NCBI GenBank assembly: GCA_001804865.1 | Contig: MHBK01000048.1 | Coordinates: 4,843 to 68,842 of the forward strand | DNA from: Lentisphaerae bacterium GWF2_57_35 | GTDB taxonomy: Bacteria > Verrucomicrobiota > Kiritimatiellia > CAIQIC01 > GWF2-57-35 | Direction of reading: 5' to 3' | DNA length: 64,000 nt | In this document: piece by piece, positions 1,953-44,445 of the stretch | Layout of the letters: the number at the start of each line of letters is the position of its first letter | How positions within the stretch are numbered: the first letter of the stretch is position 1 | Translations under genes and position numbers: made by a program | Notes under the pieces: model-generated | Seen by the model: the letters and a program-made list of their open reading frames with translations, nothing else | Told to the model about the DNA's origin: nothing | Database searches by the model: none

Positions 1953-1968
1953 ACCTGTGAACTTGAAG

Positions 1969-7077: not shown

Positions 7078-7081
7078 GGCT

Positions 7082-7810: not shown

Positions 7811-7834
7811 ACAGGCAAAGTGGATACTTGATAT

Positions 7835-11677: not shown

Positions 11678-14119
11678 ATGAAACGGTTGTACGCAAATCT
11701 TTTGCAGCCGGTGTGGATGAGTTGTCTGCTGCTCGGTTGCTTGCCTGTCTCTGTCCTTGCTCAAGAAACGCTCTACGATTATGAAACGCCGGAGCCGGCT
11801 CAAGCTCGATGTGCGGCTCCTGTCTTTACGAATGCCATTACACTTTCTACCGGCGTACAAGCCGAGGCCAAGGACCTTGCGCGGGCGAGGGGATTGATCC
11901 AAAGCGACGAGCTCGCGGAGGGCTGCGCGCTGCTGGAAAAGATCGTCGAGGTTCAGCCGACTTATATTCCGGCCTGGAGGCTGCTGGGCGAAACGTACTG
12001 GCAAAATGGGCGGCAGGAGGATGCGATCCGCCTGTGGGAATTGTTGCGTCCGATCGTTCCTTCAGAGTTGTTCGTGCACAATTCTTTGGGCGATGCCCAC
12101 CGTTCGAGAAACGAGTTGGAGCCGGCGATCGAGGCCTATCGCCGTAGTTTGCAGGTCGATGCCGACCAGCCCGAAATCGTGTTCCAATTGGGCCGCGTAC
12201 TGCGATGGGCGGGGCATTTGGAGGAGGCGATTGCGGTCTTGCAGCCGCTGTGCCAAACCCATCCGGAGCGCATCGATATCAAAGCCGAACTGGCGCGCTC
12301 CTACTTGACAAGCCGTCAGTACGACCGAGCCCTGCCGCTCTGGAACGAATTGGTTGAAGCGGCTCCGGCCCATGCCGAATACGAGACGTATCGCACGTTG
12401 GCCTTGTTTTACGCGGGGCATCGCGAGGAGGCCATTGGTCATGCCCAAGCCTTGATCAGAGATCATCCCGCCAACAGCCGGCTCTTATCGTTATTGGCGG
12501 ATGCGGCCGAGTACAGCGGCGACTTGTTCAGTGCGGCGACGTTTCTGGAGCAAATCTACAGTGCTTCGGGGCAGGACATGAAGAGCCGTCGCCGCATTCT
12601 GAATCGATTGATTCCGTTGTATGACCGTGGTTACGGCCAACAGGCGGAGCGGTTTCCCCTGGACCGGCTGTGCGAGCTCGTTCGCGGCTATATTCAAAGC
12701 GATCCGATGAATGCCGACATGTATCTGGCGTTGGGGGATCTGTTGGTTCTCGACAGCCGTTATGAAGAAGCGATTAGCGCGTATCGTCATGTGCTCGATG
12801 AATTGAACTCCTGCAATATACGCGCCCATCGCGGTCTGTTCGAACTGTTGTTGCGTCAGGGCGACTATGAGGGCGCCGAGCAGGAACTGTCTTCCATTCG
12901 TCGCTTTAATCCCCATGATCCCTATTTGTATTCCATCCAGGCCCGGTGGTATGCGGAGCAATCTCGCTATAAGGAGGCGTTCGAGGCGTTGGACAAGCTG
13001 GAGCAATCGGGCTGGAACGGCTCCCTGGCCGTCTTGCTTTATCACGGACTCAGCAGCAGCGACGATTCGGAAATACTGCCCGTGACGCAATTCCAGGAGC
13101 AACTGAGTTTATTGAAGGAGGCCGGTTTTCGATTTATCACGGCGGCGCAGATTCCCGGATATTTCGAGCAAGCCCGGCGCATGCGCGAGCTGTTCGGCGG
13201 GATGGGGGTCGAGCGGGTGGCCTGCGTTACGTTTGACGATGCCCGTCGCGATGCCATGCGCCTGGGTACGCCGGTGGCGGAAGAATTGGACCTTGTTTTC
13301 TCCATGCATGTGCCGGTGGGTTTTGTGGAGGAGCAGCACCCCTTTATCAGCACCTTGGATATGTTGAAGGAATTCGAGGCAACCGGACATTGGATCATGG
13401 GCAGCCACTTGGTGGACGCCCATAAAGGCTATCCGTTGGATGCCGAAGGACATCAGGGGTACCCGATGGCCAATCGCGTATGGATTGCCGAAGCGCACAA
13501 GACGGAGTCCGAAGCGCAATATGTTCAGCGCGTTGCCGCGGAATATGGCCAATCGCGGCGCTTCATGGATGCCTATCTCCATACGGCCCGCACGACGCCG
13601 TTTGTGGCGTATCCCTTCGGCGATATCGGCCAGCAAACCGTCTGCAACGAAATCGAGTCCGTGCCGATCAATTTGCGCGAATGCGGACGGCATTACCAAG
13701 TCGGCTTTATTCAGAGCCCATTCGGATACGCCGTGCAGGGCGACAACCCCTTGCTGTATCAACGCATCGAACCGCATCGGTGGGAAAACGGCAGCAATCT
13801 GGTCGTTCGCGTGCTGGAGAATCATCCGGTCTTGCTGGCCCGGCGCCTCCGCGCGGAATATGCGGCGCGCGCGGGCAAAAAGTATCTGGCGCGGGATAAT
13901 TTGGAAGCGCTTCAGAAGGATGGCTATCCGCCGTCTTCGCTGGAAAAAACGCGCCTCTACGTTGAGCGCATATTGGGACGAAGAATCTCGCTGCCGGAAC
14001 CGGCGGACGAAGATCCGGCGGACCCGCCCCAGCGGCCGACGGTTCCCGGGACCGAGGCCCCTCGTGAAGATCTTCAGCCTTCGCGACAGGAGCTTTTGCG
14101 GGAGAATCTCGGATTCTGA
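11678..14119 (+). CDS. Secreted (possibly lipo-) protein: N-terminal TPR array + C-terminal CE4 polysaccharide-deacetylase-like domain (PgaB-role candidate)
   Basis: Signal peptide 'MKRLYANLLQPVWMSCLLLGCLPVSVLAQE' with a possible lipobox LLGC. About 400 aa of TPR-like repeats ('AWRLLGETYWQNGRQEDAIRLWE', 'NSLGDAHRSRNELEPAIEAYRRSLQVD'). CE4 motif-1 'ACVTFDDARRD', then 'FSMHVPVG' and 'FVAYPFGDIG'. Paralogue of the next gene. Confidence 0.75.
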   Translation: MKRLYANLLQPVWMSCLLLGCLPVSVLAQETLYDYETPEPAQARCAAPVFTNAITLSTGVQAEAKDLARARGLIQSDELAEGCALLEKIVEVQPTYIPAWRLLGETYWQNGRQEDAIRLWELLRPIVPSELFVHNSLGDAHRSRNELEPAIEAYRRSLQVDADQPEIVFQLGRVLRWAGHLEEAIAVLQPLCQTHPERIDIKAELARSYLTSRQYDRALPLWNELVEAAPAHAEYETYRTLALFYAGHREEAIGHAQALIRDHPANSRLLSLLADAAEYSGDLFSAATFLEQIYSASGQDMKSRRRILNRLIPLYDRGYGQQAERFPLDRLCELVRGYIQSDPMNADMYLALGDLLVLDSRYEEAISAYRHVLDELNSCNIRAHRGLFELLLRQGDYEGAEQELSSIRRFNPHDPYLYSIQARWYAEQSRYKEAFEALDKLEQSGWNGSLAVLLYHGLSSSDDSEILPVTQFQEQLSLLKEAGFRFITAAQIPGYFEQARRMRELFGGMGVERVACVTFDDARRDAMRLGTPVAEELDLVFSMHVPVGFVEEQHPFISTLDMLKEFEATGHWIMGSHLVDAHKGYPLDAEGHQGYPMANRVWIAEAHKTESEAQYVQRVAAEYGQSRRFMDAYLHTARTTPFVAYPFGDIGQQTVCNEIESVPINLRECGRHYQVGFIQSPFGYAVQGDNPLLYQRIEPHRWENGSNLVVRVLENHPVLLARRLRAEYAARAGKKYLARDNLEALQKDGYPPSSLEKTRLYVERILGRRISLPEPADEDPADPPQRPTVPGTEAPREDLQPSRQELLRENLGF

Positions 14120-14197
14120 TTTAGAAAGACATTCAAATCGAATTGGCCTATACTGCACAAATTCACATTGTCGAAACAAGCTATGGGGAATAAACCA

Positions 14198-17100
14198 ATG
14201 GTCAAATGGATTGCCGCGTTTGTATTGCTCGTTGGGTTTGAAATGGTCCATGCCGATGAAGCTTTCGAATCTCCAGCGATGCCTGAGCCTTCCATCACTG
14301 CCGATCCGAATAACCCTGATGTAAAGCCAGAATCTCCGGTGAACGGCCTGTTCGAGGCGGCCAATCGGGATATGGCGGCGACCAACTGGCCGGCCGCGAT
14401 TACCAAGTTGGAACAAGTTATCGAACAGGACCCCAGTCTGCTCTCTGCTTGGGGCCAACTCGGCTGGTGCTATTGGAACAATGGCCGCCAGGACAAAGCG
14501 ATCGAGCTGTGGGAAACCCTTCGGCGCATCAATCCAAAATTGCCGATGGCCTACAATCTGCTGGGCATGGCGTATATGGCCAATGGGGAGCAGCCGAAAG
14601 CCATTGAGTTTTTTCGCAAGAGTCTGGAGTTAGATCCGGATCAAGAACCTGTCGAGTATTCGATCGCCCGCCTTTCGCGTTGGGAGGGGCGCTTCGAAGA
14701 CTCGATCAGCATTCTCCGACGTCAATTGGACAAGAACGAAGACCGGCTCGATATCCGGTTGGAACTCGCGCGCGCCTATCTGAACAACTGGCAATTCGAA
14801 GAGGCGCTTCCTCTTTGGGAAAAACTGGCGCAAAGCCAGCCGGACAACTTGGAATATCGTTTGTACTGTGCGGAGTGCCGACTGCGCACCGGCCAGGCCG
14901 ATGAGGCGTTGCCTGAGATCGAACAAATTTTAGCCGAAGATCCGAACCATACCAGCGCGTTGTTAATCATGGCCGATCGGGCCGAATACGGCGAACGTCC
15001 CGCCGATGCGATTCCCTATCTTCGCCGGTTGGTCGCGGAAACCACGGAACTGCAATTGCGCCAGAAATATCGAATGAGGTTGATCGACCTCTACGTCCGC
15101 CTCAATCGCGACAAGCCCTTGGAGTATCCCCTGAACGAAGCGATCGGCATTCTCAAGGATTACATCCGGGACGATCCCAATAATACGGATGCGCTGCTTT
15201 TGCTTGGCGAATTGCTTTCGATGGACAACCAATTCGCCGATGCCCAACAAAAATTCACGATCGTGCTGCGCGATTTCAACCCCAACAACATGAGGGCGCA
15301 ACGCGGCTTGTTCGAAGCGTATGCCGCCGAGAAGAACTTTGCGGAGGCCGACAAGCATCTGAAGCGCGTCGAGGCCTTCAATCCACAAGATCCGTATAAT
15401 CATTACCTGCGGGCTCGCTATGAAGCGGCGAGGGGACGTTTCGGACGGGCGTATCAGGAACTGGATAAATTGGAAGCGGCCGGCCAGCAGGGTTCCGTGC
15501 TCGTTCTGCTCTTTCATGGTTTGACCACGAGCGAGTGGACCGAAATCCCTTCCGTCAGGCTCTTCCGCGAGCAATTGATGGCCTTGCAAAAAGCCGGCTT
15601 CCGTTTTCTGACGCCCATGGATCTGCGCGATTATTTTTCTTCCCTGGAAAGAATTAACGACAGCCGTTCGGAGCGAACGCCCAATCGCGCCGTCATCATC
15701 ACCTTCGACGATGCGCGTCTGGATTCCTTCCGTTTGGCTACGCCGGTTTTCAAGGACTTGGGCATTCCTTTTTCGATGCATGTGCCGGTCGGCAACATCG
15801 AACGGAAAGATCCGTTTCTCGCGTCCTGGAAGCAATTGGCGGATTATCGGCAACAGGGTTGGGTGATGGGCAGCCATCTTTATGAGGCCAGCACGCCTGT
15901 GCCGGGCGAGCGGGGGATGATGGTCCGTCCCCTGACCAGCCTTATCCGCCTCAACCCGGCCAACCGCATGGAAACGCTGGACGAATTCAACCAACGCATC
16001 CATATGGAATACGACCTGAGCAGCCGGCTGATGCAATCCTATTTGGGCGAAAAGCCGTCCTTTGTGGCCTATCCCATGGGCGACATCGGGCAGGAGACCT
16101 ACAGCGACGTTCCGGAGGCCGTGACGGTCAATTTGCAGTCGGCATCCACGAATTACGCCGTCGGTTTCATTCAATCCGTTTTCGGGTATGCCGTCAACGG
16201 GGATAATCCTCTGCTGTATCAGCGGCATGAGTTGGGGCGGCATGTTTCGGCCAGCAACACCGTGAATGAAGTGCTCAGGATGCATCCGGTCTTTTTAGCG
16301 CGCCGCATGAGGGCCGAATTGGCGACGCTGGAAGGCAAGCAGTACAAAGCGCTGAAAATCCTGGAACGGCTGAAGGAAGACGGTTATCCGGAGCAGTCCT
16401 ACAACGACCTCAATACCTATGTGCATACGAAGCTGTCCCACAAATTCGTTCCTCCGCCGTCGGTTGACAACGTGAGCAAAGGGCCTTTCAATTTGGATAT
16501 TAAGAAGCCGTATGTGGGGGCGAGGGCTCATTATTTCCAAGACAATTTGGAGCGCAAAAATTATCACATGTATGCGTTCGGAGGGCTTAATCTCACGCCC
16601 AATATCGTTGCCGAAGGCCAGGCCGGATGGGGTCAGCTTAAACAAGGCCGGCAAGACTTGGATGACGGCAGTTCGCTGCCGGAAATCGAGGTTGACGAGA
16701 CCTCGGCCGGGGTTAAAGGATCCTTCACATTTCCCAGCGGAAATTTGCTCTCCGGCGATTTCATGTTGCGCAATTTCGGCGAGCCCGTGAACGAAGTCGA
16801 GCCGACCTATGGGATCGAGGGTCAGTTCAAACCGGTCTTGCCGCTCGATCTGACCGGACGCTTCGAGCACGATGTGGAGCCGTCTGCGCGCACCGTCGTG
16901 CGCGACATGGTTACTTACGATCAGTGGATGGCGAACGGGGTTTTCAGCATTCGGGATTGGTGGGATGTGTGGGGCAGCGGACAATACTACCTCTATTCCG
17001 ACGATAACAATCGTTTGCATGGAGCCGTGAGCAGCCAATGGTTGATTTGGGAAGACATCGGCTTGCGCCTCGGCTTGCGTTATGCCTATACCACCTCGGA

Positions 17101-17521
17101 AGAAGCCCGCGACGATTATTGGACGCCTTACCAGTTGAATCGATTTTATCTGGAAGCATCGCTCCGTCATACCTACCAGCGAACCTATTATAACTTGCAG
17201 GCGCGGACCGGACTGGGCAAACAGAATGTCCGCCCGGATGCCGACGAAAAACACCAGGCCCGTCTGGTTCAGTTAAACCAGGATATCGCAACGGCCCGAC
17301 AGCAGCGCTGGCCGCAAAGCGACATCGATGCGCTGATTCAGGAACGCGACCAACTGATCGTCAATCCGCCGGAAGAAGAATGGAAACCCGTTTTCGGCTT
17401 GGCCGCTTCCGTCCGCAGCAAGCTGGGCGAACACTGGGAATTGCACGGCGAAGTCTCCGTCAACAAAGTGCCGGAGTATTACGAAGCCACGGTGGCGGGC
17501 GATATTACCTTCCGATTTTAA
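14198..17521 (+). CDS. Secreted TPR array + CE4 deacetylase-like domain + C-terminal outer-membrane beta-barrel (PgaA/PgaB-like roles fused)
   Basis: Signal peptide 'MVKWIAAFVLLVGFEMVHADE'; alternative starts at 14168 and 14183. TPRs ('AWGQLGWCYWNNGRQDKAIELWE'). CE4 module 'AVIITFDDARLDSFRLATPVFKDLGIPFSMHVPVG' and 'FVAYPMGDIG'. The last ~330 aa have alternating hydrophobic/aromatic strands ('HMYAFGGLNLTP', 'GVKGSFTFPSGN', 'LRLGLRYAYTT') and end in 'DITFRF', a typical OMP C-terminal aromatic signature. Confidence 0.7.
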   Translation: MVKWIAAFVLLVGFEMVHADEAFESPAMPEPSITADPNNPDVKPESPVNGLFEAANRDMAATNWPAAITKLEQVIEQDPSLLSAWGQLGWCYWNNGRQDKAIELWETLRRINPKLPMAYNLLGMAYMANGEQPKAIEFFRKSLELDPDQEPVEYSIARLSRWEGRFEDSISILRRQLDKNEDRLDIRLELARAYLNNWQFEEALPLWEKLAQSQPDNLEYRLYCAECRLRTGQADEALPEIEQILAEDPNHTSALLIMADRAEYGERPADAIPYLRRLVAETTELQLRQKYRMRLIDLYVRLNRDKPLEYPLNEAIGILKDYIRDDPNNTDALLLLGELLSMDNQFADAQQKFTIVLRDFNPNNMRAQRGLFEAYAAEKNFAEADKHLKRVEAFNPQDPYNHYLRARYEAARGRFGRAYQELDKLEAAGQQGSVLVLLFHGLTTSEWTEIPSVRLFREQLMALQKAGFRFLTPMDLRDYFSSLERINDSRSERTPNRAVIITFDDARLDSFRLATPVFKDLGIPFSMHVPVGNIERKDPFLASWKQLADYRQQGWVMGSHLYEASTPVPGERGMMVRPLTSLIRLNPANRMETLDEFNQRIHMEYDLSSRLMQSYLGEKPSFVAYPMGDIGQETYSDVPEAVTVNLQSASTNYAVGFIQSVFGYAVNGDNPLLYQRHELGRHVSASNTVNEVLRMHPVFLARRMRAELATLEGKQYKALKILERLKEDGYPEQSYNDLNTYVHTKLSHKFVPPPSVDNVSKGPFNLDIKKPYVGARAHYFQDNLERKNYHMYAFGGLNLTPNIVAEGQAGWGQLKQGRQDLDDGSSLPEIEVDETSAGVKGSFTFPSGNLLSGDFMLRNFGEPVNEVEPTYGIEGQFKPVLPLDLTGRFEHDVEPSARTVVRDMVTYDQWMANGVFSIRDWWDVWGSGQYYLYSDDNNRLHGAVSSQWLIWEDIGLRLGLRYAYTTSEEARDDYWTPYQLNRFYLEASLRHTYQRTYYNLQARTGLGKQNVRPDADEKHQARLVQLNQDIATARQQRWPQSDIDALIQERDQLIVNPPEEEWKPVFGLAASVRSKLGEHWELHGEVSVNKVPEYYEATVAGDITFRF

Positions 17522-17541
17522 TCGTGGCGGGAACGTTAAGA

Positions 17542-17747
17542 GGACGGCGAGGCCGCCGTCCCTCCCGGCAGGTGGCCCGGCTTCTCCGAAGACGGGCTTT
17601 CCTGAAAAGAACGAGCCCCCCACAGAAAATAACAGGAGCGGTTGGGTGCATCCTGACACGGCCGCAACCGCGGACGGCGACGGAGCGCCGTCCCTACCTT
17701 TTTTTGCCGTGGGTAGGGCGCTCACTCCGCTGAGCGCCGTGTTTTCC
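17542..17747. terminator. Cluster of GC-rich hairpins between convergent EPS genes; probable bidirectional termination zone
   Basis: GGACGGCG-aggc-CGCCGTCC at 17542-17561. GGACGGCG-acggag-CGCCGTCC at 17672-17693, followed by CTACC+T7. GGCGCTCA-ctccgc-TGAGCGCC at 17717-17738, followed by GTGTTTT. CCCTACC (17692-17698) can also pair with GGTAGGG (17712-17718). Confidence 0.45.
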
Positions 17748-17779
17748 TGTCAAACAGGCCGGAGCGGCTTACGGCGATT

Positions 17780-20700
17780 TTATTTCTTGCTGTCTACCGT
17801 TGAGGCTTCCATTCCCGTCCAGAGCGGAATGCCCGGCAATGCATCGGGCATGGCTACGACAACCGGTTTTGTTGGCGAAAGCGTGCTTAAAGGCTTGTGC
17901 GAACCATTGGGCTCTTCCCACGAAACAGCTTGCACATCCCGGACTTCGGAGGCCCCATTGAAAATGGCTGCGCCTTCTCCTGCGCCGCGCCACTGGCAGG
18001 CTCCGGCAACCGGATCGAGCGCGAGCACCAACACCTTCAACGAGGAGCCCGCCAGTTCGCGATCCAACTTTTCGAACCAGGCGGCTTCAGGCAATCGGTC
18101 CAGCAGCAGGGTAAATCCGGAAAAGCCGTGTTTATCGGCGGCCGCCAGCAGCTCGCTGCCCGAGATCTGATGAGCGGAAGAGGCCTGAACCGCCGGCATC
18201 AGCCGCAAACGATAATATCGGGCGAAGAGCCGCAACAGCATCTCGTTTTCGCCCGCTGACTTTGACCAGGTTCCGTTTTCCTCGATCCGAAACCAAAGAG
18301 GCGCAAGGTCGGAGATGTAATTGCACTCGGGCTGCAGTTTTTCGATCAGGACATCCACATCGTTGGTGGCTTTCAGCGCCGGCAGCAGCACCAAGCGAGG
18401 CATCAGCGGGCCGGCGGCTATACGGCTGATGGCGGCCTGCGCGGTCCCTCGTTCGTTCCGATAAACACTCAATCCCACCCATCCCAAGCCCAGATGGGGC
18501 GGTACTTCCAGGGGAGATGAGAAAACGGGCGAGCTGTCAATCAGCCCGATCACGCCGTCGCCGCGCAAGGCGAGGCGCAGGTTTGCGCCGTCCGCGGGGA
18601 GCGTCCAGAATTTGGATTGCGATGCCACCAAGTGTCCGTGATTCCAGACTTGCAGGAAGAGCTGGTGCGTGTCGTCCAGTCCGAACCGGATAAAGTGATC
18701 CGACGTTCGCCGCACATAAAGCCAGAAGGAACCGGAAACTTTTTTCACGACCGCCTCGATGAACGAGTCGGTGATATGCTCCGATCCCAGCAGCCGCAAG
18801 GCCGCCTCGGAATGGGAGGAATCCGCACTCAGAACGCCTCCCTGGGTGGAGTGCCTCGAGAACGAACCTCCATCGAGCCACCAGGCTTCCGACAGATGTC
18901 CGTCGGCGCAGGATTCCTGTAAAGGCGCATACCGGGGTTTTAAGCGAAGAAACAAGGCGGTGACGCGATCGTCGCCTTTTTGTTCGGAGACGGTATTGAT
19001 GAGCCGGATCAGCGGATAGGTTTGGGCCACGCTCAACAAATCGTATTTCCAAATGGCTTGCCCTAATTCGTAGCGTTTATCGGCTTTCTGGCCCAGTTTC
19101 ACCAACGTATCCAGGCGCGCAGTAAATTCCGCCGGCTCCAAAGGCAACCGCAAGGCGATGGCATTGGCCTCGATGTGTTCAGGCTCCAACGTCAGGATTC
19201 GCTCGACCAGCCGGATCGCTTCCGGGTTCCGGTTTTGCCGCCACAACCATTCTGCCTGGGCCAAAAGAATGGATACGTCGTCCGGGAATAGACGGGCATA
19301 CATATTCAAGCTGCTGACGGCTTCGTTGATTCGTCCCATTTTTGTCAGCAAATTGACCCGTCGAATGACGAGCGAAATCTGGCCGGGATCCTGTTCCAGG
19401 CTTCGATCGTAAAACAGAATGGCCTGTTCGGAATCGCCTTTGCGGAGGTAGGCGTCGCCGATCAGCATGGGCGGGCGCGGATTCATGGCATCCAGTTTGA
19501 ACCATTCCGACCAGGCTTCGACGGCTTTGTCGTATTCCGCATCCAGGTAGGCCGCCTGGCCCTCCTGTTGCAGCCGGCTTAAACTGGCTTCCAACGTTTC
19601 TTCCATGTTGGTCCCGGCGGTCATCGGGATTTCGAACGACAAGGGCAACCCTTCATCCGGCGCCGGGCTGGGAATCGTTTCCACTTTGGTGGTCGATTCC
19701 TTGGTATAAGGATCTCGTTTGATGGGCGAGTTGGTGGAGACCGCCAGTTGAAGCCCGGGCGCCACCGCGAGAATGGATCGCAAGGACATGCTGGACTCGA
19801 TCGCTGTTGGCAATCGCACCAGCATGGAAAGTCCTTTGCGTTGAAGCGTCTTGGCGCATTGCATCAGCCAGGTGGTGATTCCAGCCGGGGAGGGGTTGTT
19901 CATATCCCCGAAATCCATGAAGATGCCGTCGCATTGATCCGCCGCGGCATCGTCGGCCAGCTTGGACGGCGTCAAGCGGCTTAACGCCTGCTCGTTTTCC
20001 ACCCGTACGCAGGGCATCAGTTTTAGATGATAAATGCGGGAAAGCGTTTTGAAGGTCGTCGCGTCCCATCCGGTTTTCAAGGCTTGTCCTACGCCGGATA
20101 CGGTCATCCACTTGGGACTCAAGCCGGTTAATCGGTAGGCATTCCGGTGCAGCCACTGCAAAACGTAGGGCTCCCGGGCGCGATCGATGTCCCAGGCGGC
20201 CAAGGTGCGTTGTTCCGAGTTCAGCACCACGCTGGAGATGCTCACTCGCGCCTGGCCCTTGACCGGGTCCCATACGCTGATCCCCAACATGCCGGGCCGG
20301 GCTTCGCCCCGCAATAGAATGTGATCCTTGAAGATCTGACGTCCGTCCAGCATGGCAAACAACATGCGGTCTCGGACGAATATCTCCAGGATGTGATCGT
20401 CGCGCGAATCGAGCCCCAAGCGGGCCGAGGCCAGCGTAAAACGTTCCGCGCTGACGCTCTTTTGCCGGAGCCAGACATTCAGGTCGTTGCTCAGCTCGTC
20501 GTCCGACCAATTATCCATCTCCTGGCCCATCTTCTTTTCGCGCAGCCAGACTTCGCCCCGCGTATCCATGCCCAGATAAACATACGACTCTTCATCGGCG
20601 GCCGCCCGCAGATAGACGCCCATCTGGCCCCGTTCCAATTTGAAAAGGACGCGCGTATAGAAATCGCGGCTTAAATCGCTTCCGCCCAGCCATATTTTGG

Positions 20701-21808
20701 CGCCGGTAAGTTCTTCGGGAGCATACAGGGTCAGCCGATTGTCTTCCTGCTTCATCGCGCCCCAATCCACAATCCAGGCCGACGGCATGGTCACGGTGTC
20801 CTTCTCCAGTTGAGCTTCCTCCAATGGCCAAGAACGATCCAGATAGCGGATCAAATCGGAGGCGCTCCAACTCGAACGCACCCGCAACCGGTTCAATCTT
20901 CGCGGGTCGCTGTAACGGGTGTTCAGCGCCAGATTCCCGGAAAGAAAACCCAGGTCGTAATTTTTTCCGACCAACGCCAGATTGATGCTCCGGGGGACGA
21001 CGGCCCGCGGCTGGAATTGTCCGAAATCCCCATAGGGATATGCGAAAGCCATCGGTTTGAGGCTGACTTCTTCCTCGATATCGGTCAGGCATTTTTCGTG
21101 ATCGGCGATCAGGCGTTTCTGGAATTCTTCCACGGTTTCGTAACGGAGGTCCTTGTCCAACCAGCGTGGACTGGTCATGAAATGGCCCATGCGCCCGCCG
21201 GGGCTGGCCTTGATTTTTTCAAACCCGCCGTAACTTTGGGCGCCGATCTCCCACAACTTGGATCGCGCCATGATTTGAACATAGGGCCAGAGCAAGCTGG
21301 CGGGATCTTTTTCCACGATCGATTCCGTCCATAGAAACATGACCGCCGTCCAGCCCATCCGGCGCAGGATGGGATTGACGCTGTAGTAGGACGTTTTCCG
21401 GGCGTGATCGAAGGTGAGCAGCACGGCCTTGGGGGGAAGCTTCCGGCCTTCCTTAAACAGGCGCCGCACGTCGTCCAGACGAATTGGATTATACCCATGC
21501 GCTTTCAAGACCTCGAGGTGCTCGTTAAACTGAGCCGGAGAAATCTCGTTGGTTTTCGAAGAAACGCCTTCGTACGCCAGCGTCACAAACGATTCGGCCT
21601 CGCGCGGGCCGCTATAGGTCGCCGGAGGCCACAGCCAGCGGCTGACCACAATTTTCACCGGGAACCACCAGGCCACCAACAATCCAATCACCATGATGTA
21701 ATGGAGCCAAACCGAGCCATAGGAAACGGAAACCGGCTGGACGGGACGGGAAGAATGAGGCTGCATTTCGGAAGGACGCCCGTCCGGATCGTGAACTTGT
21801 TGTGTCAT
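17780..21808 (-). CDS. 1342-aa membrane-anchored periplasmic multidomain protein: CE4-like domain (variant motif) + [lectin-like + alpha/beta module] + TPR + second [lectin-like + alpha/beta module]
   Basis: Start at ATG 21808 overlaps the synthase stop (ATGA). N-terminal TM segment 'VWLHYIMVIGLLVAWWFPVKIVV'. CE4-like 'AVLLTFDHARKTSYYSVNPILRRMGW', 'FAYPYGDFGQ'. TPRs 'AYLDAEYDKAVEAWSEWFKLD...GDAYLRKGDSEQAILFYDRSLEQDP'. Internal duplication is visible ('RIYHLKLMPCVRV...CDGIFMDFG...GLSMLVRLP' versus 'RYYRLRLMPAVQA...FSGFTLLLD...SLKVLVLALDP'). The track's 1468-aa version extends 378 nt into the synthase gene. Confidence 0.7.
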   Translation of the reverse strand: MTQQVHDPDGRPSEMQPHSSRPVQPVSVSYGSVWLHYIMVIGLLVAWWFPVKIVVSRWLWPPATYSGPREAESFVTLAYEGVSSKTNEISPAQFNEHLEVLKAHGYNPIRLDDVRRLFKEGRKLPPKAVLLTFDHARKTSYYSVNPILRRMGWTAVMFLWTESIVEKDPASLLWPYVQIMARSKLWEIGAQSYGGFEKIKASPGGRMGHFMTSPRWLDKDLRYETVEEFQKRLIADHEKCLTDIEEEVSLKPMAFAYPYGDFGQFQPRAVVPRSINLALVGKNYDLGFLSGNLALNTRYSDPRRLNRLRVRSSWSASDLIRYLDRSWPLEEAQLEKDTVTMPSAWIVDWGAMKQEDNRLTLYAPEELTGAKIWLGGSDLSRDFYTRVLFKLERGQMGVYLRAAADEESYVYLGMDTRGEVWLREKKMGQEMDNWSDDELSNDLNVWLRQKSVSAERFTLASARLGLDSRDDHILEIFVRDRMLFAMLDGRQIFKDHILLRGEARPGMLGISVWDPVKGQARVSISSVVLNSEQRTLAAWDIDRAREPYVLQWLHRNAYRLTGLSPKWMTVSGVGQALKTGWDATTFKTLSRIYHLKLMPCVRVENEQALSRLTPSKLADDAAADQCDGIFMDFGDMNNPSPAGITTWLMQCAKTLQRKGLSMLVRLPTAIESSMSLRSILAVAPGLQLAVSTNSPIKRDPYTKESTTKVETIPSPAPDEGLPLSFEIPMTAGTNMEETLEASLSRLQQEGQAAYLDAEYDKAVEAWSEWFKLDAMNPRPPMLIGDAYLRKGDSEQAILFYDRSLEQDPGQISLVIRRVNLLTKMGRINEAVSSLNMYARLFPDDVSILLAQAEWLWRQNRNPEAIRLVERILTLEPEHIEANAIALRLPLEPAEFTARLDTLVKLGQKADKRYELGQAIWKYDLLSVAQTYPLIRLINTVSEQKGDDRVTALFLRLKPRYAPLQESCADGHLSEAWWLDGGSFSRHSTQGGVLSADSSHSEAALRLLGSEHITDSFIEAVVKKVSGSFWLYVRRTSDHFIRFGLDDTHQLFLQVWNHGHLVASQSKFWTLPADGANLRLALRGDGVIGLIDSSPVFSSPLEVPPHLGLGWVGLSVYRNERGTAQAAISRIAAGPLMPRLVLLPALKATNDVDVLIEKLQPECNYISDLAPLWFRIEENGTWSKSAGENEMLLRLFARYYRLRLMPAVQASSAHQISGSELLAAADKHGFSGFTLLLDRLPEAAWFEKLDRELAGSSLKVLVLALDPVAGACQWRGAGEGAAIFNGASEVRDVQAVSWEEPNGSHKPLSTLSPTKPVVVAMPDALPGIPLWTGMEASTVDSKK

Positions 21809-23325
21809 CGTGTACCCCACGTGGTTTTGCGCATGGTGGCCAGGGCGTAATAGCCCTGCCAACTGAAAAACAGGACGTATGTAATCGTAAAAACGAACCC
21901 TGCCCACCAATGCGGGCGCCCCGTTTTCTCCAGATAAAACAGCGACCACAAGAGCGTGACGACCAGCACGCCGCCAACATAAAAGCTCGGGAAGTAGTGC
22001 TCCATAATGGGGCCCCAGACCAAGGCTCGCAACATGACCAGCGGCGCCAGCATCGGCAACACCGTCATGGCATACCAGGAGACCGCCGCCACCGGATGCT
22101 TGCACCACATGAACCGCCCGGCATACAGCATCTCCCGAACCCACGAGCGTTTCCACCGGCATTGCTGCCGGATGTATTTGCCCCATTTTTCGGGCACGAT
22201 GGTGGTCGCCAGGGCTTCGTCGTCATAGAGGACCCGATAATCGCGGAGCAGGTAGTTGGTCAAACTCCGGTCGTCGCCGAACGTGGCGTAATGGCCGAGG
22301 AATTTCTGGTAAAGCCATCGATCCAGGACATTCAGCACGCAGACCTTGCGATAGGCGGAAAAACAACCCGGGCAGCAACTGACCGCGCCAAAAAGACTTT
22401 CGGCGGCTTTCAATACGCGATACGAAACGAAATAGCGGACATCCTGCATTTTCGTCAACGCATTGGTTCCGACATTCTCGACATCCGTATGTCCCGCGAC
22501 GGCCGCCACGGTTGGATCGACCAGCCCCTGGACGACTTTCCGGATGGCGCCGGGCATGAGGAAGCTGTCGGAATCCACATACACAAGCATTTCGCCTTTG
22601 GCCAGCAAAGCGCCGATGGCCATGCCATGACGCTTCCCTTTGTTTTTTTCGAAATCGACGACGACCAGCGACGGATGCCGATCCAATGCTTTCATCATTT
22701 CGTCCAGCGTGCGGTCGGTCGACCCGTCGTTTACCGCCACCACTTCCAGCTTCGAATGAGGATAGCCTTCCTGGTAAATGCGCCCGATGGTTTTGCCGAT
22801 GGAGTCGTCTTCGTTGCGGCAGGCTACCACCACGGTCACCGTCGGCTCGAATCCGACATCCCGGGGCGCCAGATAAAATGCCGCCAGAATGAACCGGGAT
22901 AAAATAAACACGCCCACGCTCAGGCTGTAGAGATTAATCCACGGCTGATACCAGTAATAATCCAGGTTGTGCAGCTTGAAGTAGATGGCCAGGGTAATCA
23001 GCAGGACGAGCAATGCGTTGAAGCCTAATACCAGGCCTCCATGCATCTTGTTGTATTTCTCCGAGGCTCTGCCCGCATCCGTTTCGTCGCCGGCTTCCGG
23101 CGTGGGCAGCCGGGACTCCAAGACGGTTCGTTCCATCGTATTGCTGCAGAAGGGGCAGACCGAGGATGTCAGGGAGGACATGACATGGATGCTCATCTCG
23201 CAGTTCGGACAACGATGGCTTGATCCTTTCGCCGGCTGGCGTCTTGCACCCATCGGATCTGAAACAACGCTTTCCGCAGCGCCAAGCCATGTATTGAGCC
23301 CGGCGGCCTGGTCCGAAACTGCCAT
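21805..23325 (-). CDS. Processive family-2 glycosyltransferase (hyaluronan/chitin/NodC/PgaC-like synthase) with an N-terminal zinc-ribbon
   Basis: AGGAGG lies 8 nt upstream of ATG 23325. Zinc-ribbon 'CPNCEMSIHVMSSLTSSVCPFCSNTM'. TM segments flank a GT2 core with 'VVACRNEDDSI', 'AVNDGSTDRT', 'VYVDSDS', 'GDDRSLTNYLL' and the processive-synthase motif 'QQCRWKRSW' (Q(Q/R)xRW). Several C-terminal TM helices. Confidence 0.8.
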   Translation of the reverse strand: MAVSDQAAGLNTWLGAAESVVSDPMGARRQPAKGSSHRCPNCEMSIHVMSSLTSSVCPFCSNTMERTVLESRLPTPEAGDETDAGRASEKYNKMHGGLVLGFNALLVLLITLAIYFKLHNLDYYWYQPWINLYSLSVGVFILSRFILAAFYLAPRDVGFEPTVTVVVACRNEDDSIGKTIGRIYQEGYPHSKLEVVAVNDGSTDRTLDEMMKALDRHPSLVVVDFEKNKGKRHGMAIGALLAKGEMLVYVDSDSFLMPGAIRKVVQGLVDPTVAAVAGHTDVENVGTNALTKMQDVRYFVSYRVLKAAESLFGAVSCCPGCFSAYRKVCVLNVLDRWLYQKFLGHYATFGDDRSLTNYLLRDYRVLYDDEALATTIVPEKWGKYIRQQCRWKRSWVREMLYAGRFMWCKHPVAAVSWYAMTVLPMLAPLVMLRALVWGPIMEHYFPSFYVGGVLVVTLLWSLFYLEKTGRPHWWAGFVFTITYVLFFSWQGYYALATMRKTTWGTR

Positions 23326-23532: not shown

Positions 23533-23928
23533 ATGACCGGTTTCTTAATTATCGAAGACGAGGCCCCCATCCAAGTTATTCTCAAACGATTGATAGGCAA
23601 CATGGGTTACGATGTAACCATCGCCAATGACGGTGAAGCCGGATATCGCCTGGTTCAAGAAAACGACTTCGATGTTATTCTCACCGATCTGATTATGCCG
23701 GGGCGTCTGCAAGGATTTGAACTGCTGCGCAAAATTCGGGAAGCGAAGCCTGAGTCCTCGGTCATCGTCGTGTCAGGTCATCCCTCCAGCGAAACCTTGG
23801 CCGAATGCCAAAAACTGGGGATACAGGATTTCTTGAGCAAACCGTTTGAAATGTCCTTTGTCAGAGTGGTTGTTCAAAAGCTCCTCAACCGAAGAGCAAG
23901 TTCGGCCAGGACTGAATCGAAGCTATGA
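23533..23928 (+). CDS. Single-domain response regulator (CheY-like receiver)
   Basis: 'FLIIEDE' acidic pocket, phospho-acceptor 'FDVILTDLIMPG', 'VIVVSGH' and 'FLSKPF'. No output domain. Start at ATG 23533 is preceded by GGAGAG. Confidence 0.85.
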   Translation: MTGFLIIEDEAPIQVILKRLIGNMGYDVTIANDGEAGYRLVQENDFDVILTDLIMPGRLQGFELLRKIREAKPESSVIVVSGHPSSETLAECQKLGIQDFLSKPFEMSFVRVVVQKLLNRRASSARTESKL

Positions 23929-24845
23929 TTACCAGAACGCCATTGGGAGTGTCCTTTTTCGATCGGCTTTATGGAGGCATTTATCGCGGCCGCTCCTGTC
24001 TGGTGACCGGCCGATCGGGTTCGGGCAAGACCGCCGTCAGCCTGCATTTTCTTTCGCACGGGTTGATGTTGCAGGAACGCTGCCTGATGCTTTGCGCCAA
24101 ACCCGCCCAGGATATCGCCATTCATGCCAGCTCCTTGGGCCTGCCGGTTCAATCGGCTGTGGAGTCGGGCAATTTGATCTTGTTGGAATACAGCGACTTT
24201 GTGCCCGGCCGCGATCGGGAAGAAACGCTTATCCTGCCCCCCGACGCTTTTCTGCAGCTTAAAGAAATCATCGAAGCCCAAGCGATTCAACGGCTCATCA
24301 TCGATACCGTCTTGCCCTGGATCACCCTGCCGGATCGGGAAAAAGTGGCGGAACACGTCTTTTCGTTTGTCCGGGCCATCGATCGGTTGGGCGTATCGAC
24401 GCTGTTCACCATGCTCAAGCCGGTTTCCGTGCCCGCCTTTCAATTGCGGCAATTGATGGAGAACCTTGTGCCGATTTCCATCAGCTTGGTCTACACTCCG
24501 GAAAACGAGTCGCGCGAATGGGTGACCAATAAATACATGGGCATGAACATCCAGGCCCAGACCGTCAAATACAATATATCTCAAGGACAAGGCCTCTACG
24601 AAATTTCCGGCGCCGATGCGCCGGAGGCTTCGGTGTCCGCCTTCTCCTCTTACTCCGCGGCGCCGGACGTACAGCCGAATGCCGCTTCCGATCGTACCCC
24701 GCCGATGCAAAAAGGCTTTGCCGATTTTGTCCTCGATAAAACCGCCTATCGCGCCGCGCCTCTGCGCACTCATTCTGTTGCGTCTGTTCGTCCGTCATCG
24801 GACAAGCCGGGAGGATCGCCATCTGTTTTCGGATCGCCCAAGTAG
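23925..24845 (+). CDS. KaiC/RecA-superfamily ATPase-like protein with a Pro/Ser/Ala-rich tail
   Basis: ATGA overlap with the receiver gene. 'FDRLYGGIYRGRSCLVTGRSGSGKTAVSLHFLSHG' (Walker A in the KaiC/RadA-like context), 'QRLIIDTV' (Walker B-like). The last ~90 aa are low complexity ('SAFSSYSAAPDVQPNAASDRTPP...SSDKPGGSPSVFGSPK'). Confidence 0.65.
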   Translation: MITRTPLGVSFFDRLYGGIYRGRSCLVTGRSGSGKTAVSLHFLSHGLMLQERCLMLCAKPAQDIAIHASSLGLPVQSAVESGNLILLEYSDFVPGRDREETLILPPDAFLQLKEIIEAQAIQRLIIDTVLPWITLPDREKVAEHVFSFVRAIDRLGVSTLFTMLKPVSVPAFQLRQLMENLVPISISLVYTPENESREWVTNKYMGMNIQAQTVKYNISQGQGLYEISGADAPEASVSAFSSYSAAPDVQPNAASDRTPPMQKGFADFVLDKTAYRAAPLRTHSVASVRPSSDKPGGSPSVFGSPK

Positions 24846-24870
24846 TAGTCGTCAAAGGAGTATGCATTAG

Positions 24871-25731
24871 ATGTACGTGTCGTATTGGAACTTGCGGGAA
24901 AGACCGTTTCAGAATGTGGCCAACACGCAATTTGCCTATTTATCCCCGCAGCATCGGGAAGGATTAGCTCGCCTGTTGTATATCGTGGAAGAACGGAAGC
25001 TCGGCGGGGTTCTGATCGGTCCCTATGGCGCCGGCAAAACCATGATATTGGAAATGCTCGCCGGCATCGTGAAAACCCGGCCCAACCTCACCTATATTCA
25101 AATCGATGCCCCTCCGTCCAATGCCCTGGCTTTGGCCCGGCAGTTGTTGGCGTGCCTGCAATACACGCAGCCGGTTAACGATATCGCACAAGCCCTTAAT
25201 GCCATTCAAGGCTATTTATCCTATGCCGGAACGGCCGTTCCTCATTTGGTGGTGGTCGTCGACGAAGCCCAGATGTTGCAGGACTCCGACGCTTTTGAGT
25301 TCCTTCATTTGTTGTGCAATATGAGAGTGCGGAATAAGGACGGCGGGGTGGGGGAAAATGGGATCACCCTCATTCTGGCGGGACATCAGGATCTGGTCAG
25401 CCGCTTGGCCGCCCGGGCCTCGCTGGCTCAACGATTGCAGTTCTTCTGGAAGCTGGATCCGCTGAACCAACAGCAAACCATGGAATATGTCCAACATCGC
25501 ATGCGCAGCGCCGGCGGAGATATCTGGGCCTTCGAAGAAGAAGCGTTGAAAGCCATCGTGACTTATACGCAAGGGCTGCCGCGCTTGATCAACAACCTCT
25601 GCGACGTGGCCTTGTTGCTCGGATGCGCCATGAACGGGTCCCGCATTACAGCCGATATTGTTCGGCAGGCCGCCCGCGATGTCCAAATTCCCACCCTAAC
25701 GGAAGCCAACACCATATCGGAGGCGTCATGA
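24871..25731 (+). CDS. ExeA/MshM-like AAA ATPase (AAA_22 type)
   Basis: AAAGGAG SD lies 10 nt upstream. 'FAYLSPQHREGLARLLY' (ExeA-like N-terminus), Walker A 'GPYGAGKTM', Walker B 'HLVVVVDEAQ', 'LILAGHQDL' and 'GLPRLINNLCD'. No peptidoglycan-binding or TM extension. Confidence 0.7.
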   Translation: MYVSYWNLRERPFQNVANTQFAYLSPQHREGLARLLYIVEERKLGGVLIGPYGAGKTMILEMLAGIVKTRPNLTYIQIDAPPSNALALARQLLACLQYTQPVNDIAQALNAIQGYLSYAGTAVPHLVVVVDEAQMLQDSDAFEFLHLLCNMRVRNKDGGVGENGITLILAGHQDLVSRLAARASLAQRLQFFWKLDPLNQQQTMEYVQHRMRSAGGDIWAFEEEALKAIVTYTQGLPRLINNLCDVALLLGCAMNGSRITADIVRQAARDVQIPTLTEANTISEAS

Positions 25732-26072
25732 ACTACGAAATCGATACCCCTCTGACCATGACGGGTTTGATTGCCACGATCGTCAGTCTGATCTTTGCCG
25801 GCGCCGCTTGGTACAATTCGTATCGCCGCCGCCATCATGCCCAGCCGGACGTTCCCAGAGGACCGGTCTCGCCGCCGCCTGCCGAAGTGGCGCGGCTGCA
25901 CAAAGAGCCGTCGATCCAACCGGCCAAACCAGCTTTTTCAGCTCCTGTCCCCAGCCCGTTCGAAGCGTCGGACGCGCTCCCTAATTCCTCCTCGCTTTTT
26001 AAAAAGTTGGGTGTTAATGGAATGGAAGAACCTTCACAAGTTGGTGAAGACAAGCAATACCGCTGGGAATAA
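25728..26072 (+). CDS. Small bitopic membrane protein with a proline-rich tail
   Basis: ATGA overlap with the AAA ATPase gene. One TM segment 'LTMTGLIATIVSLIFAGAAWY', then 'PDVPRGPVSPPPAEV...PAKPAFSAPVPSPF'. The position and shape recall the small partner (ExeB/GspB-type) of ExeA-like ATPases. Homology is not demonstrable by eye. Confidence 0.5.
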   Translation: MNYEIDTPLTMTGLIATIVSLIFAGAAWYNSYRRRHHAQPDVPRGPVSPPPAEVARLHKEPSIQPAKPAFSAPVPSPFEASDALPNSSSLFKKLGVNGMEEPSQVGEDKQYRWE

Positions 26073-26126
26073 TTCCCTCGTTTTGCGTGAGCACATCGAA
26101 GGACAGGCGCAGCAGGAAGGTGATTC

Positions 26127-26594
26127 ATGGCCATGGTATGGGTGGTTGACGACGACAACGAAGTTCGGGGCGTGGTCCAGACTTTGCTTGAAGGATTGGG
26201 GCATCAGGCCCGTTCCTTCGGAGACGCTCAAACCGCATTGCAGGAATACCGACCGGGCGCCGCCGAAGTCATCATCTCCGATGTGCGAATGCCGGCGATG
26301 GACGGCCTGGCCTTCACTCACGCCATCCTCGACCGCGACCCGGAAGCCAGCATCATCATTCTGACCGGCTATCCTTCGGTCAATACCGCCGTCGAAGCCA
26401 TGCAGGCGGGCGCCGTGGATTTCTTAGGCAAACCCTGCAACGTCGGCGAACTGCGCGTGCGGGTCGACCGGGCCCTGGACATCCGCGCCTGGCAGGTCCG
26501 CCTGCGTAAAAACCGCCTGTTGACGCTGGGCCTGATCCTCTCCCTGCCGCTCTGGATTATCCTCGGGATCGTATTGGTTTCATTCCTGCATTGA
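26127..26594 (+). CDS. Response-regulator receiver domain with a C-terminal transmembrane anchor
   Basis: 'VWVVDDD', phospho-acceptor 'VIISDVRMPAMDG', 'IIILTGY' and 'FLGKPC', then a TM segment 'LLTLGLILSLPLWIILGIVLVSFL'. AGGAAGG SD. Confidence 0.8.
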   Translation: MAMVWVVDDDNEVRGVVQTLLEGLGHQARSFGDAQTALQEYRPGAAEVIISDVRMPAMDGLAFTHAILDRDPEASIIILTGYPSVNTAVEAMQAGAVDFLGKPCNVGELRVRVDRALDIRAWQVRLRKNRLLTLGLILSLPLWIILGIVLVSFLH

Positions 26595-44439: not shown

Positions 44440-44445
44440 GGCCGT

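Follow-up and report, generated by a model that had tools for sequence, protein, structure and literature searches.

The locus described here lies in a stretch of 64,000 nt, referred to as the window, which corresponds to positions 4,843-68,842 of contig MHBK01000048.1 (assembly GCA_001804865.1) of Lentisphaerae bacterium GWF2_57_35 (Verrucomicrobiota; Kiritimatiellia; CAIQIC01; GWF2-57-35). It consists of nine genes, reported in Table 1, which encode a glycosyltransferase of family 2 (GT2, the synthase), three large proteins containing tetratricopeptide repeats (TPR) and deacetylase folds of family CE4 (proteins A, B and C), and a divergent group of receivers and ATPases; taken together, they very probably form an exopolysaccharide secretion locus. 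The nine open reading frames (ORFs) listed in an initial annotation of this DNA were recovered at the same coordinates by an ORF scan of the window, which is matched by the independent gene calls of the source assembly for all nine products (813, 1107, 1342, 506, 131, 306, 286, 114 and 155 aa). The overlap said to join the synthase to the 1342-aa gene is also present in the sequence, where the stop of the former overlaps the start of the latter as ATGA: ACACGATGACACAA (WGTR-stop / ATG). In the gap between the convergent genes of B and C, GC-rich hairpins followed by T-runs are found at 17672-17693 and 17717-17738. These are the two strongest such sites of the locus in a consensus scan, in which sites are overall no more numerous than expected from shuffling, and are likely terminators.

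Table 1. Features of the locus in window coordinates; the rightmost column gives the five CE4 catalytic positions, as mapped on PgaB/IcaB alignments.
Feature	Position	Strand	Size	Description	CE4 residues
Protein A	11678-14119	+	813 aa	TPR and CE4, without barrel	HDDHH (canonical)
Protein B	14198-17521	+	1107 aa	TPR, CE4 and barrel	HDDHS
Convergent B/C intergenic gap	17522-17779	.		two hairpin and T-run sites	
Protein C	17780-21808	-	1342 aa	anchored degenerate CE4, sandwiches, TPR	EDHQF (4/5 catalytic residues lost)
GT2 synthase	21805-23325	-	506 aa	inner-membrane processive GT2	
RR1	23533-23928	+	131 aa	stand-alone Response_reg	
KaiC-like ATPase	23925-24845	+	306 aa	KaiC/RecA-superfamily, single domain	
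AAA_22 ATPase	24871-25731	+	286 aa	ExeA/GspA-like	
Small membrane protein	25728-26072	+	114 aa	single-pass	
RR2	26127-26594	+	155 aa	Response_reg and C-terminal transmembrane helix	

Pfam and NCBIfam scans of the proteins, proposed earlier as a check, confirmed the GT2, CE4, TPR, Response_reg, KaiC-type and AAA_22 families. The synthase matches Glyco_tranf_2_3 (6e-25), Chitin_synth_2 (1e-21), NodC (4.9e-49) and PgaC_IcaA (TIGR03937, 1e-32), all its NCBIfam matches being below the equivalog cut-offs. It is made up of a cytosolic N-terminal zinc ribbon, two transmembrane helices, a GT-A domain (DGS, DSD, GDDR, QQCRW) and two to three further transmembrane helices, the helices being assigned by hydropathy. 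The motifs AVNDGSTD, VDSDS, GDDRSLTNY and QQCRWKRSW, quoted in the initial annotation, were all found in the translation, and its last four residues are WGTR, a gating-loop motif essential in hyaluronan synthases (HAS) (PMC11750622). The best solved relatives are the HAS of a Chlorella virus (CvHAS, E = 6.5e-29) and of Xenopus (XlHAS1, 6e-26); the alignment reaches the terminal WGTR, and the acceptor-site Cys/Gly of HAS is conserved. Since the synthase ends at WGTR, the transmembrane helices that come after this motif in CvHAS are absent.

Sequence identity is about 30% to B. anthracis HasA, 27-30% to NodC and 23-27% to PgaC (24.5% against the annotated plasmid gene), and the BLASTP alignment with E. 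coli PgaC ends at QxxRW. In a neighbour-joining tree, the synthases of the Planctomycetes-Verrucomicrobia-Chlamydiae (PVC) group, of Candidatus Portnoybacteria (44%), from the candidate phyla radiation (CPR), and of Paenibacillus (40%) form their own clade beside NodC and HasA, apart from PgaC and BcsA. Nearly all of 120 homologues end at WGTR or a few residues from it, and 104 of them carry the N-terminal zinc ribbon CxxC-x14-CPFC, the other 16 being shorter gene calls. The position of the ribbon is taken in the Paenibacillus homologue by an N-terminal PilZ domain (Pfam 4.3e-6, above threshold), while scans of the nine proteins of the locus against Pfam and NCBIfam detected no GGDEF domain and none of the cyclic di-GMP (c-di-GMP) receptor domains PilZ, MshEN, PgaD-type, PelD and Alg44. 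Judged by its motifs (QQxRW-x-RS, GDDR, WGTR), by the tree and by the match to CvHAS, the synthase is a processive GT2 of the HAS/NodC/chitin synthase (CHS) class. A Nfr-type system making poly-N-acetylmannosamine was considered and rejected, the GT2 having no significant similarity to NfrB.

Protein C had been counted, together with A and B, among three TPR/CE4 giants. TPRs are indeed detected by Pfam/NCBIfam in all three, but C departs from a simple TPR/CE4 plan: its CE4 fold, which has a degenerate site (Pfam 9.3e-7), comes after a short cytosolic N-terminus and a single transmembrane helix (residues ~33-56). For residues 296-1342, an AlphaFold2 model based on 62 homologues (mean predicted local distance difference test, pLDDT, 87.3) predicts in this order a β-sandwich (345-538), an α/β domain (543-711), TPRs (739-956), a second β-sandwich (963-1142) and a second α/β domain (1148-1319). 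None of the four non-TPR domains has a Pfam match. The best whole-model Foldseek match is CBM66 (target-normalised template-modelling score 0.81, rmsd 2.5 Å); for both B and C the whole-model lists were swamped by TPR hits, and neither the barrel of B nor the α/β modules of C matched a named fold. The catalytic positions of C are EDHQF or similarly degenerate in every PVC locus, so that the protein is very probably a pseudo-deacetylase; EDHQF itself recurs in most of them, at residues ~80-190, and this suggests that the former active site serves a conserved function other than catalysis. The family is small: of 1.84 billion representatives of clusters at 50% identity, 86 reach E <= 1e-30, and the lowest-ranking few of these 86, like all weaker matches, are generic TPR matches.

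That C is a partner of the synthase is indicated by the translational coupling of the two genes and by simpler pairs found in Paenibacillus and CPR. In the former, the gene downstream of the synthase (transmembrane helix, His-less CE4 fold, sandwich) is homologous to residues 33-442 of C (E = 3e-19); in Candidatus Portnoybacteria a gene for a transmembrane-CE4-sandwich protein, with a catalytically intact CE4 (HDDHH), follows a WGTR-ending synthase by 4 nt. The plan of C recalls BcsB, the obligatory periplasmic partner of cellulose synthase, in which jelly-roll carbohydrate-binding and flavodoxin-like α/β domains alternate, and whose only membrane anchor, one helix, completes the BcsA transport domain (PMC8892547). 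On the basis of the model and of this analogy, C is a putative periplasmic co-polymerase or scaffold. The earlier remark that no PgaD, BcsB, PelD, PilZ or GGDEF partner is visible therefore holds for PgaD, PelD, PilZ and GGDEF, and is doubtful for BcsB, C being BcsB-like in plan.

Proteins A and B, described as paralogues, share 37% identity over 772 aa (E = 1e-162). A starts with a signal peptide or possible lipobox (LLGC), followed by TPRs and by a CE4 domain which was missed by Pfam and detected by NCBIfam PgaB (4.8e-8) and by IcaB in the PDB (7.5e-6); the CE4 of B is found by Pfam (8.7e-8). The AlphaFold2 model of B, built on 28 homologues (pLDDT 88.9, predicted template-modelling score 0.77), predicts a signal peptide, 22 TPR helices (about 11 pairs, 47-430), the CE4 domain (433-711), a helical linker and a 16-strand barrel (769-1106), interrupted between strands 13 and 14 by a helical hairpin insert (1013-1055). 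The fusion of TPR, deacetylase fold and barrel in one chain, as claimed at the outset, is thus reproduced by the model of B, which also supports a built-in porin. The CE4 domain matches the PgaB N-terminal domain and PplD (Foldseek, target-normalised template-modelling score 0.75-0.81). B ends in ITFRF, and the terminal residue is F, W or Y in nearly all full-length members of its family. Sequence kinship of the barrel to PgaA is suggestive: the PgaA_barrel threshold of Pfam is passed by one B homologue only, an hhalign comparison with the E. coli PgaA barrel is marginal (E = 0.0018, probability 15%), with a FSDxNxRxH motif common to both, and the PgaA model TIGR03939 gives 50 bits against a 367-bit cut-off.

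CE4 enzymes depend on an Asp acting as catalytic base, on a His acting as catalytic acid and on a metal-binding Asp-His-His triad (MT1, MT2, MT5); poly-N-acetylglucosamine (PNAG) deacetylases are circularly permuted, and the acid His therefore comes first (PMC5855634). In A, B and C alike, the CE4 domain belongs to this permuted PgaB/IcaB type, with YHG before TFDD. The three CE4 modules reported for the locus hold as folds, but the full set of catalytic residues is present only in A, which makes A the best candidate for an active de-N-acetylase in the window locus; the activity of B is uncertain. Within the B family, 7 members are HDDHH, 11 HDDHS and 8 HDDHA, the remainder being degenerate, and the second metal-binding His is kept in 7 of 28.

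A divergent Pga system, in which PgaA and PgaB are fused in B, PgaD is replaced by C and the product is PNAG, would explain the closeness of the CE4 domains to PgaB/IcaB with their common circular permutation, the 16-strand barrel with the one homologue passing PgaA_barrel and the motif common with E. coli PgaA, and the TIGR03937 match of the GT2. The same GT2, however, attains 113 bits against the 422-bit PgaC cut-off, and is nearer to HasA and NodC (30%) than to PgaC. It has GDDRSLT, QQxRWKRS and WGTR, where PgaC has TEDIDIS, QRLRWAQG and no alignable C-terminus. In addition, PgaD is matched nowhere in the locus by Pfam/NCBIfam, and no GH153 domain was identified, the PgaB model being matched only at positions 21-215 of 621. 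For these reasons a divergent Pga system is considered unlikely.

In order to evaluate the conservation of the gene set, 44 genome loci were fetched with their flanks and the window proteins were mapped on them; in 40 PVC loci the flank was sufficient for judgement. Synthase homologues at 54-79% identity come from metagenome-assembled genomes (MAGs) labelled Kiritimatiellia, Lentisphaerae, Verrucomicrobiota or 'PVC group'. Every one of the 40 informative loci has a homologue of C: in 38 it immediately follows the synthase, in one it immediately precedes it, and in another it is located about 5.6 kb upstream. Within 10 kb of the synthase, about 22 loci contain a B-like gene (TPR-CE4-barrel), mostly convergent, and 24 a KaiC-like gene, mostly divergent, both orientations being those of the window; where the contig extends, receiver and AAA_22 genes accompany the KaiC-like gene nearly always. 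Clustering of all ORFs in the loci revealed, as recurrent families, the giants, the synthase, the KaiC-like ATPase (22 loci), the AAA_22 ATPase (19) and a family named X863 (10), the last being the only other one in more than six loci; no glycoside hydrolase or nucleotide-sugar enzyme recurs near the synthase in the 44 loci. Being found across more than 40 independent genomes, the gene set is not a product of chance. Most other genomes contain one B-like gene, A being an additional, barrel-less paralogue in the lineage of the window; such a paralogue is also present in at least one other genome (P0270).

The core reading of the initial annotation, a non-canonical synthase-dependent exopolysaccharide locus, is supported, including on the points named beforehand as those on which it could fail: the GT2 is of the processive type, no curated Pga, Pel or Bcs model attains its cut-off, and the neighbours are co-conserved with the synthase.

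Some loci differ from that of the window. In MAG RA.bin38 (contig JAKLGK010000002; L010/L053) one region contains two synthase paralogues, 67% and 51% identical to that of the window, and two C-like genes, which indicates that the system is duplicated there. In one sub-clade (L024, positions 5054-9947; also L026, L027, L028, L030, L033, L036 and L039) two extra genes, X863 and Y771, both absent from the window, lie upstream of the synthase. For X863 Pfam gives no match; Y771 contains a PPC domain and TPRs and is homologous to residues ~715-1265 of C, the C-terminal half of which thus occurs in some clades as a separate gene beside X863. One of these loci (L028, Kiritimatiellaeota bacterium B1221, scaffold_8) includes the synthase, C, the ATPase module, X863 and Y771, together with a B-like gene that is partial at the edge of the fetched flank; B1221 may be a cultured strain, hence a conceivable experimental host.

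Two further loci carry the simpler pairs. On a plasmid of Paenibacillus cellulositrophicus (NZ_CP045296; L045, 4586-12216) a PilZ-synthase is followed by an anchored His-less CE4 with a sandwich and then by a GH18-like gene, a double-NodB lipoprotein being encoded upstream; this locus looks like a Gram-positive counterpart. The version of Candidatus Portnoybacteria (L044, 280-6312) is minimal: a synthase without N-terminal domain and with a WGTR end, then a transmembrane-CE4(HDDHH)-sandwich protein, with further genes for a polytopic membrane protein, a uridyltransferase similar to the GlmU N-terminus (1e-63) and a polyprenyl-phosphate GT2.

The divergent operon had been described as five genes for receivers and ATPases. 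Two Response_reg proteins, a KaiC-type ATPase and an AAA_22 ATPase are confirmed; the fifth gene encodes instead a 114-aa single-pass membrane protein, which starts with MNYEID, has a Pro-rich tail and adjoins the ATPases in many loci, its start overlapping the AAA_22 stop by 4 nt. In RR1, the product of the first gene, the acidic pocket and the Asp, Ser and Lys residues are canonical; the stop codon of this gene overlaps the start of the KaiC-like gene, beside which it is co-conserved. RR2 also has the canonical phospho-acceptor residues and, given a C-terminal transmembrane helix (136-154), is predicted to be a tail-anchored response regulator. Conservation within the gene set is lowest for RR2, a separate RR2-like gene being observed only in the closest loci (L001, L037). 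The KaiC-like ATPase (Walker A GRSGSGKT, Walker B RLIIDT) matches KaiC domains at 7.6e-22, and its low-complexity, Ala/Ser/Pro-rich C-terminal tail looks disordered. The AAA_22 ATPase (GPYGAGKT, VVVVDE) aligns over its full length to the XrtA/PEP-CTERM-associated ATPase TIGR03015 (8.7e-35; 120 bits against a 324.5-bit cut-off). A PEP-CTERM/exosortase locus, suggested by this match and by PrsT matches, was rejected, scores being far below the cut-offs and no exosortase being present among the ORFs scanned. In E. coli-type cellulose systems, a cytosolic module composed of the ATPase BcsQ, of BcsE (with ATPase-like and receiver-like domains) and of the membrane tether BcsF regulates the synthase and helps to assemble it (PMC8892547).

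The operon might be an unrelated neighbour, e.g. a PEP-CTERM-type or secretion-related module, the system being then restricted to GT2, C and B. The resemblance of the AAA_22 protein to the PEP-CTERM-associated ATPase is consistent with this, as is the distribution of the module, which is absent from the 10-kb flanks in roughly 40% of the loci and lies on a different contig from the synthase in two MAGs. On the other hand, the KaiC-like and AAA_22 families are the most frequent near the synthase after the three giants, and the TIGR03015 score is far under its cut-off, no exosortase or PEP-CTERM signal having been seen. Moreover, a reciprocal search seeded with a 6-sequence KaiC-like profile returned 13 loci, of which 12 are from MAGs also holding the synthase and one, on a 1.7-kb contig, is not judgeable; in nine of the 13 the two genes are adjacent and divergent. 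An unrelated neighbour appears, on balance, rather improbable.

As to the product, the CE4 partners point to N-acetylated sugars. UDP-glucose dehydrogenase is encoded neither in the window locus nor in any of the 44 related loci, a bona fide hasA operon, on pXO1, carrying galU and ugd. This absence, the GH18-like gene of the Paenibacillus locus and the GlmU-like uridyltransferase of the CPR locus lead us to favour a homopolymer of N-acetylglucosamine (GlcNAc), chitin-like if the linkage preference of the HAS/NodC class holds.

A hyaluronan-like or other heteropolymer, in which GlcNAc alternates with a second sugar such as glucuronic acid to give a slime resembling glycosaminoglycans (GAG), would agree with the best solved relatives of the synthase being hyaluronan synthases, with the conserved acceptor-site Cys/Gly and WGTR, and with the label 'hyaluronan synthase' given to homologues by the Joint Genome Institute. 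In addition, Pontiella strains, cultured Kiritimatiellia, produce GAG-like exopolymers (PMC7356697). The paper on these strains, however, indicates another cluster for their 'sulfated GAG', rich in GT2/GT4 genes and with a sulfotransferase (PMC7356697), which was discarded as a counterpart of the locus. The 44 loci show no recurrence of the dehydrogenase, present in the hasA operon along with galU, or of any other nucleotide-sugar gene; the GT2 is as distant from hyaluronan synthases as from NodC, and lacks the two transmembrane helices that follow WGTR in CvHAS. We regard a heteropolymer as quite unlikely. The bacterial chitin synthases derived from eukaryotes (PMC5122149) were similarly set aside, as they belong to another lineage and to other hosts.

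The lack of these C-terminal helices, the position of NodC as top NCBIfam match and the CE4 partner gene after the synthase gene, as in the NodC-NodB enzyme pairing, could also point to a NodC/NodB-like pathway, making short, partly deacetylated chito-oligosaccharides (signals or primers) and not a long exported polymer. Against the 550-bit cut-off of NodC (TIGR04242), however, the synthase scores 167 bits; the partner CE4 is catalytically degenerate in PVC bacteria, and the co-conserved 1342-aa lectin/TPR scaffold and TPR-porin are hard to reconcile with oligosaccharides. Such a pathway is very improbable.

The preferred reading is a trans-envelope, synthase-dependent secretion of exopolysaccharide, specific to Kiritimatiellota and related PVC bacteria, which we hold to be fairly probable in the following form. 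The GT2 would polymerise a UDP-activated N-acetylhexosamine (HexNAc), most likely UDP-GlcNAc, threading the chain across the membrane. C, produced in 1:1 coupling with the synthase and anchored beside it by its N-terminal helix, would act as co-polymerase, playing for the GT2 the role that BcsB plays for BcsA: the chain would be taken up on the dead CE4 fold and the two lectin-like sandwiches and passed along the TPRs. A periplasmic TPR-CE4 enzyme (A in the window, the CE4 of B in single-copy genomes) would strip some of the N-acetyl groups, making the chain cationic. B would dock via its TPRs, and the chain would leave through its own 16-strand barrel. Control would be exerted not by c-di-GMP but by the divergent module of phospho-receiver, KaiC-like ATPase, AAA_22 ATPase and small membrane tether, which probably docks on the zinc ribbon of the synthase in place of PilZ, as the counterpart of the BcsE/Q/R/F cytosolic vestibule.

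Several points weigh against this reading. Both sugar clues are weak, since the motif of the GH18-like gene is non-canonical (QGVEIDYE) and GlmU is a housekeeping gene. An hhalign comparison of the C-family profile with E. coli BcsB gave no sequence similarity (probability 0.3%), so that the likeness of the two proteins is one of plan, not of shown homology, and the α/β modules of C have no match among named folds. Most B-family CE4 domains are without the second metal-binding His, so that many genomes may have little or no deacetylation. The locus is without a histidine kinase gene, and B, like the ATPase module, is missing from the 10-kb flanks in roughly 40% of the loci; where absent, they may be encoded elsewhere or be dispensable. 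Finally, the substrate of those permuted PgaB/IcaB-type CE4 enzymes that have been studied is β-1,6-GlcNAc, and β-1,4 chains are not acted upon (PMC5855634). Because of this β-1,6 preference, the product is specified only as a polymer of HexNAc, probably GlcNAc, partly de-N-acetylated. In a rough division of the possibilities, a chitin- or chitosan-like chain is given somewhat less than an even chance, PNAG a low one and a hyaluronan-like or heteropolymeric chain a lower one still, the remainder being left to something else.

A wider reading, held tentatively, is that the locus represents a separate, previously undescribed class of diderm secretion, confined to Kiritimatiellota and related PVC bacteria. 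The exported polymer may be chitin- or chitosan-like (β-1,4-linked GlcNAc and glucosamine) and made by a HAS/NodC-class synthase; a pseudo-deacetylase co-polymerase, similar to BcsB by convergence, may complete this synthase in trans; the c-di-GMP switch may be replaced by two ATPases that are under phosphorelay control and act on the zinc ribbon; and the simpler GT2 and anchored-CE4 pair of CPR and Firmicutes may be the ancestral core.

The genes flanking the locus (radical-SAM, mutarotase-like, AraC, Ser/Thr kinase and others) were excluded from it, as they are not co-conserved. At 810-7810 of the window, four ORFs of the radical S-adenosylmethionine (SAM) or B12-binding radical-SAM type lie with a SAM-dependent methyltransferase, all under the equivalog cut-offs and not co-conserved. 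A mutarotase-like gene of the TTE1925 family (10697-11596; E = 1.5e-86, 290 bits against a 550-bit cut-off) is directly upstream of A, and is found in none of the 44 related loci. Two GH1-like ORFs, one of them unusually long (930 aa), and a GH5/GH2-like ORF are located at 43111-48530; unrelated to the polymer locus, they fit a polysaccharide-degrading lifestyle.

Kiritimatiellota are a widespread anaerobic, polysaccharide-degrading lineage, the few cultured members of which are noted for slime production. Knowledge of synthase-dependent secretion comes from a small number of proteobacterial systems, those for cellulose, PNAG, Pel and alginate, which to our knowledge are all controlled by c-di-GMP. 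The locus would add to them a system on the hyaluronan/chitin-synthase branch of GT2, with a receiver and two ATPases as regulatory input, a pseudo-enzyme scaffold and a single-chain TPR-deacetylase-porin. It would also offer natural experiments on the coupling of a HAS-class enzyme to outer-membrane export, on the turning of CE4 folds into carbohydrate-binding pseudo-enzymes and on the swapping of PilZ control; a secreted chitosan-like polymer, if confirmed, could be of biotechnological interest. No account of the gene set came up in full-text searches of the literature. In a systematic survey of synthase-dependent operons, Verrucomicrobia, Lentisphaerae and PVC are not mentioned, and the passages on fusions describe no TPR-CE4-porin fusion (PMC7112194).

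Of the components typical of the general class of Gram-negative synthase-dependent systems, three are represented in the locus: a processive GT2 with D,D,D,QxxRW and 4-5 transmembrane helices, a TPR scaffold joined, in the model of B, to a predicted outer-membrane β-barrel, and a candidate periplasmic modifying enzyme, A, whose CE4 has all five residues. A c-di-GMP receptor domain is found in none of the nine proteins. The locus resembles the E. coli Pga system (PgaABCD) in the inner-membrane GT2, the permuted PgaB/IcaB-type CE4, the TPR scaffold and the predicted 16-strand barrel, for which the weak sequence similarity to PgaA is suggestive. It differs in the HAS/NodC class of the synthase, in being devoid of PgaD, c-di-GMP input and GH153, in the fusion of TPR, CE4 and barrel in one chain, and in the additional 1342-aa anchored scaffold with its dead CE4. 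With class I HAS (Streptococcus/Bacillus HasA, CvHAS, vertebrate HAS), in which synthesis is coupled to membrane translocation, the synthase shares DxD, GDDR, QQxRW-x-(K/R)S, WGTR and the acceptor-site Cys; unlike them, it falls in a separate clade at about 30% identity, has a zinc ribbon and no last transmembrane helices, and is encoded without hasB/ugd nearby, beside a diderm export apparatus with CE4 partners. The rhizobial NodC/NodB pair is similar in that NodC is the top curated model and that a GT2 gene of the same class is followed by a CE4-fold gene. Here, however, the score is far under the cut-off, the partner CE4 is PgaB-type and degenerate, and the large periplasmic and outer-membrane export parts point to a long polymer.

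Bcs systems provide the closest parallels of plan: BcsB is anchored and alternates jelly-roll and α/β domains, as C does, BcsC combines TPRs with a 16-strand barrel, as predicted for B, and the E. coli-type cytosolic module also comprises ATPases, a receiver-like domain and a small membrane tether. In contrast, the anchor is N-terminal in C and C-terminal in BcsB; C adds a CE4 fold and internal TPRs and has no sequence similarity to BcsB; the synthase ends at WGTR, without the C-terminal PilZ of BcsA; the ATPases are KaiC-like and AAA_22, not SIMIBI; and the receivers look phosphorylatable, not degenerate. XrtA/PEP-CTERM loci have in common the end-to-end alignment of the AAA_22 protein with TIGR03015 and PrsT as best TPR match of A and B, but the scores are low (PrsT 116-122 bits vs 312, TIGR03015 120 vs 324.5), and no exosortase, PEP-CTERM protein, chain-length determinant or tyrosine kinase was seen in the locus. 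The pairs of Paenibacillus (NZ_CP045296) and Candidatus Portnoybacteria belong to the same synthase clade (40-48% identity), with WGTR at or near the C-terminus, and their next gene (transmembrane helix, CE4, β-sandwich) has the plan of the first 440 residues of C. As monoderm or CPR versions, they lack TPR and barrel; Paenibacillus has the N-terminal PilZ on the synthase, a GH18-like gene and a canonical NodB-type deacetylase, and the CPR CE4 keeps all its catalytic residues. Lacking a PgaC-type synthase, PgaD, GH153, PilZ, BcsB homology and hasB, the locus belongs to none of the Pga, Bcs and Pel systems, although it would work like these machines. It is a real, conserved, uncharacterised variant of synthase-dependent secretion, rather than a new category of biology.

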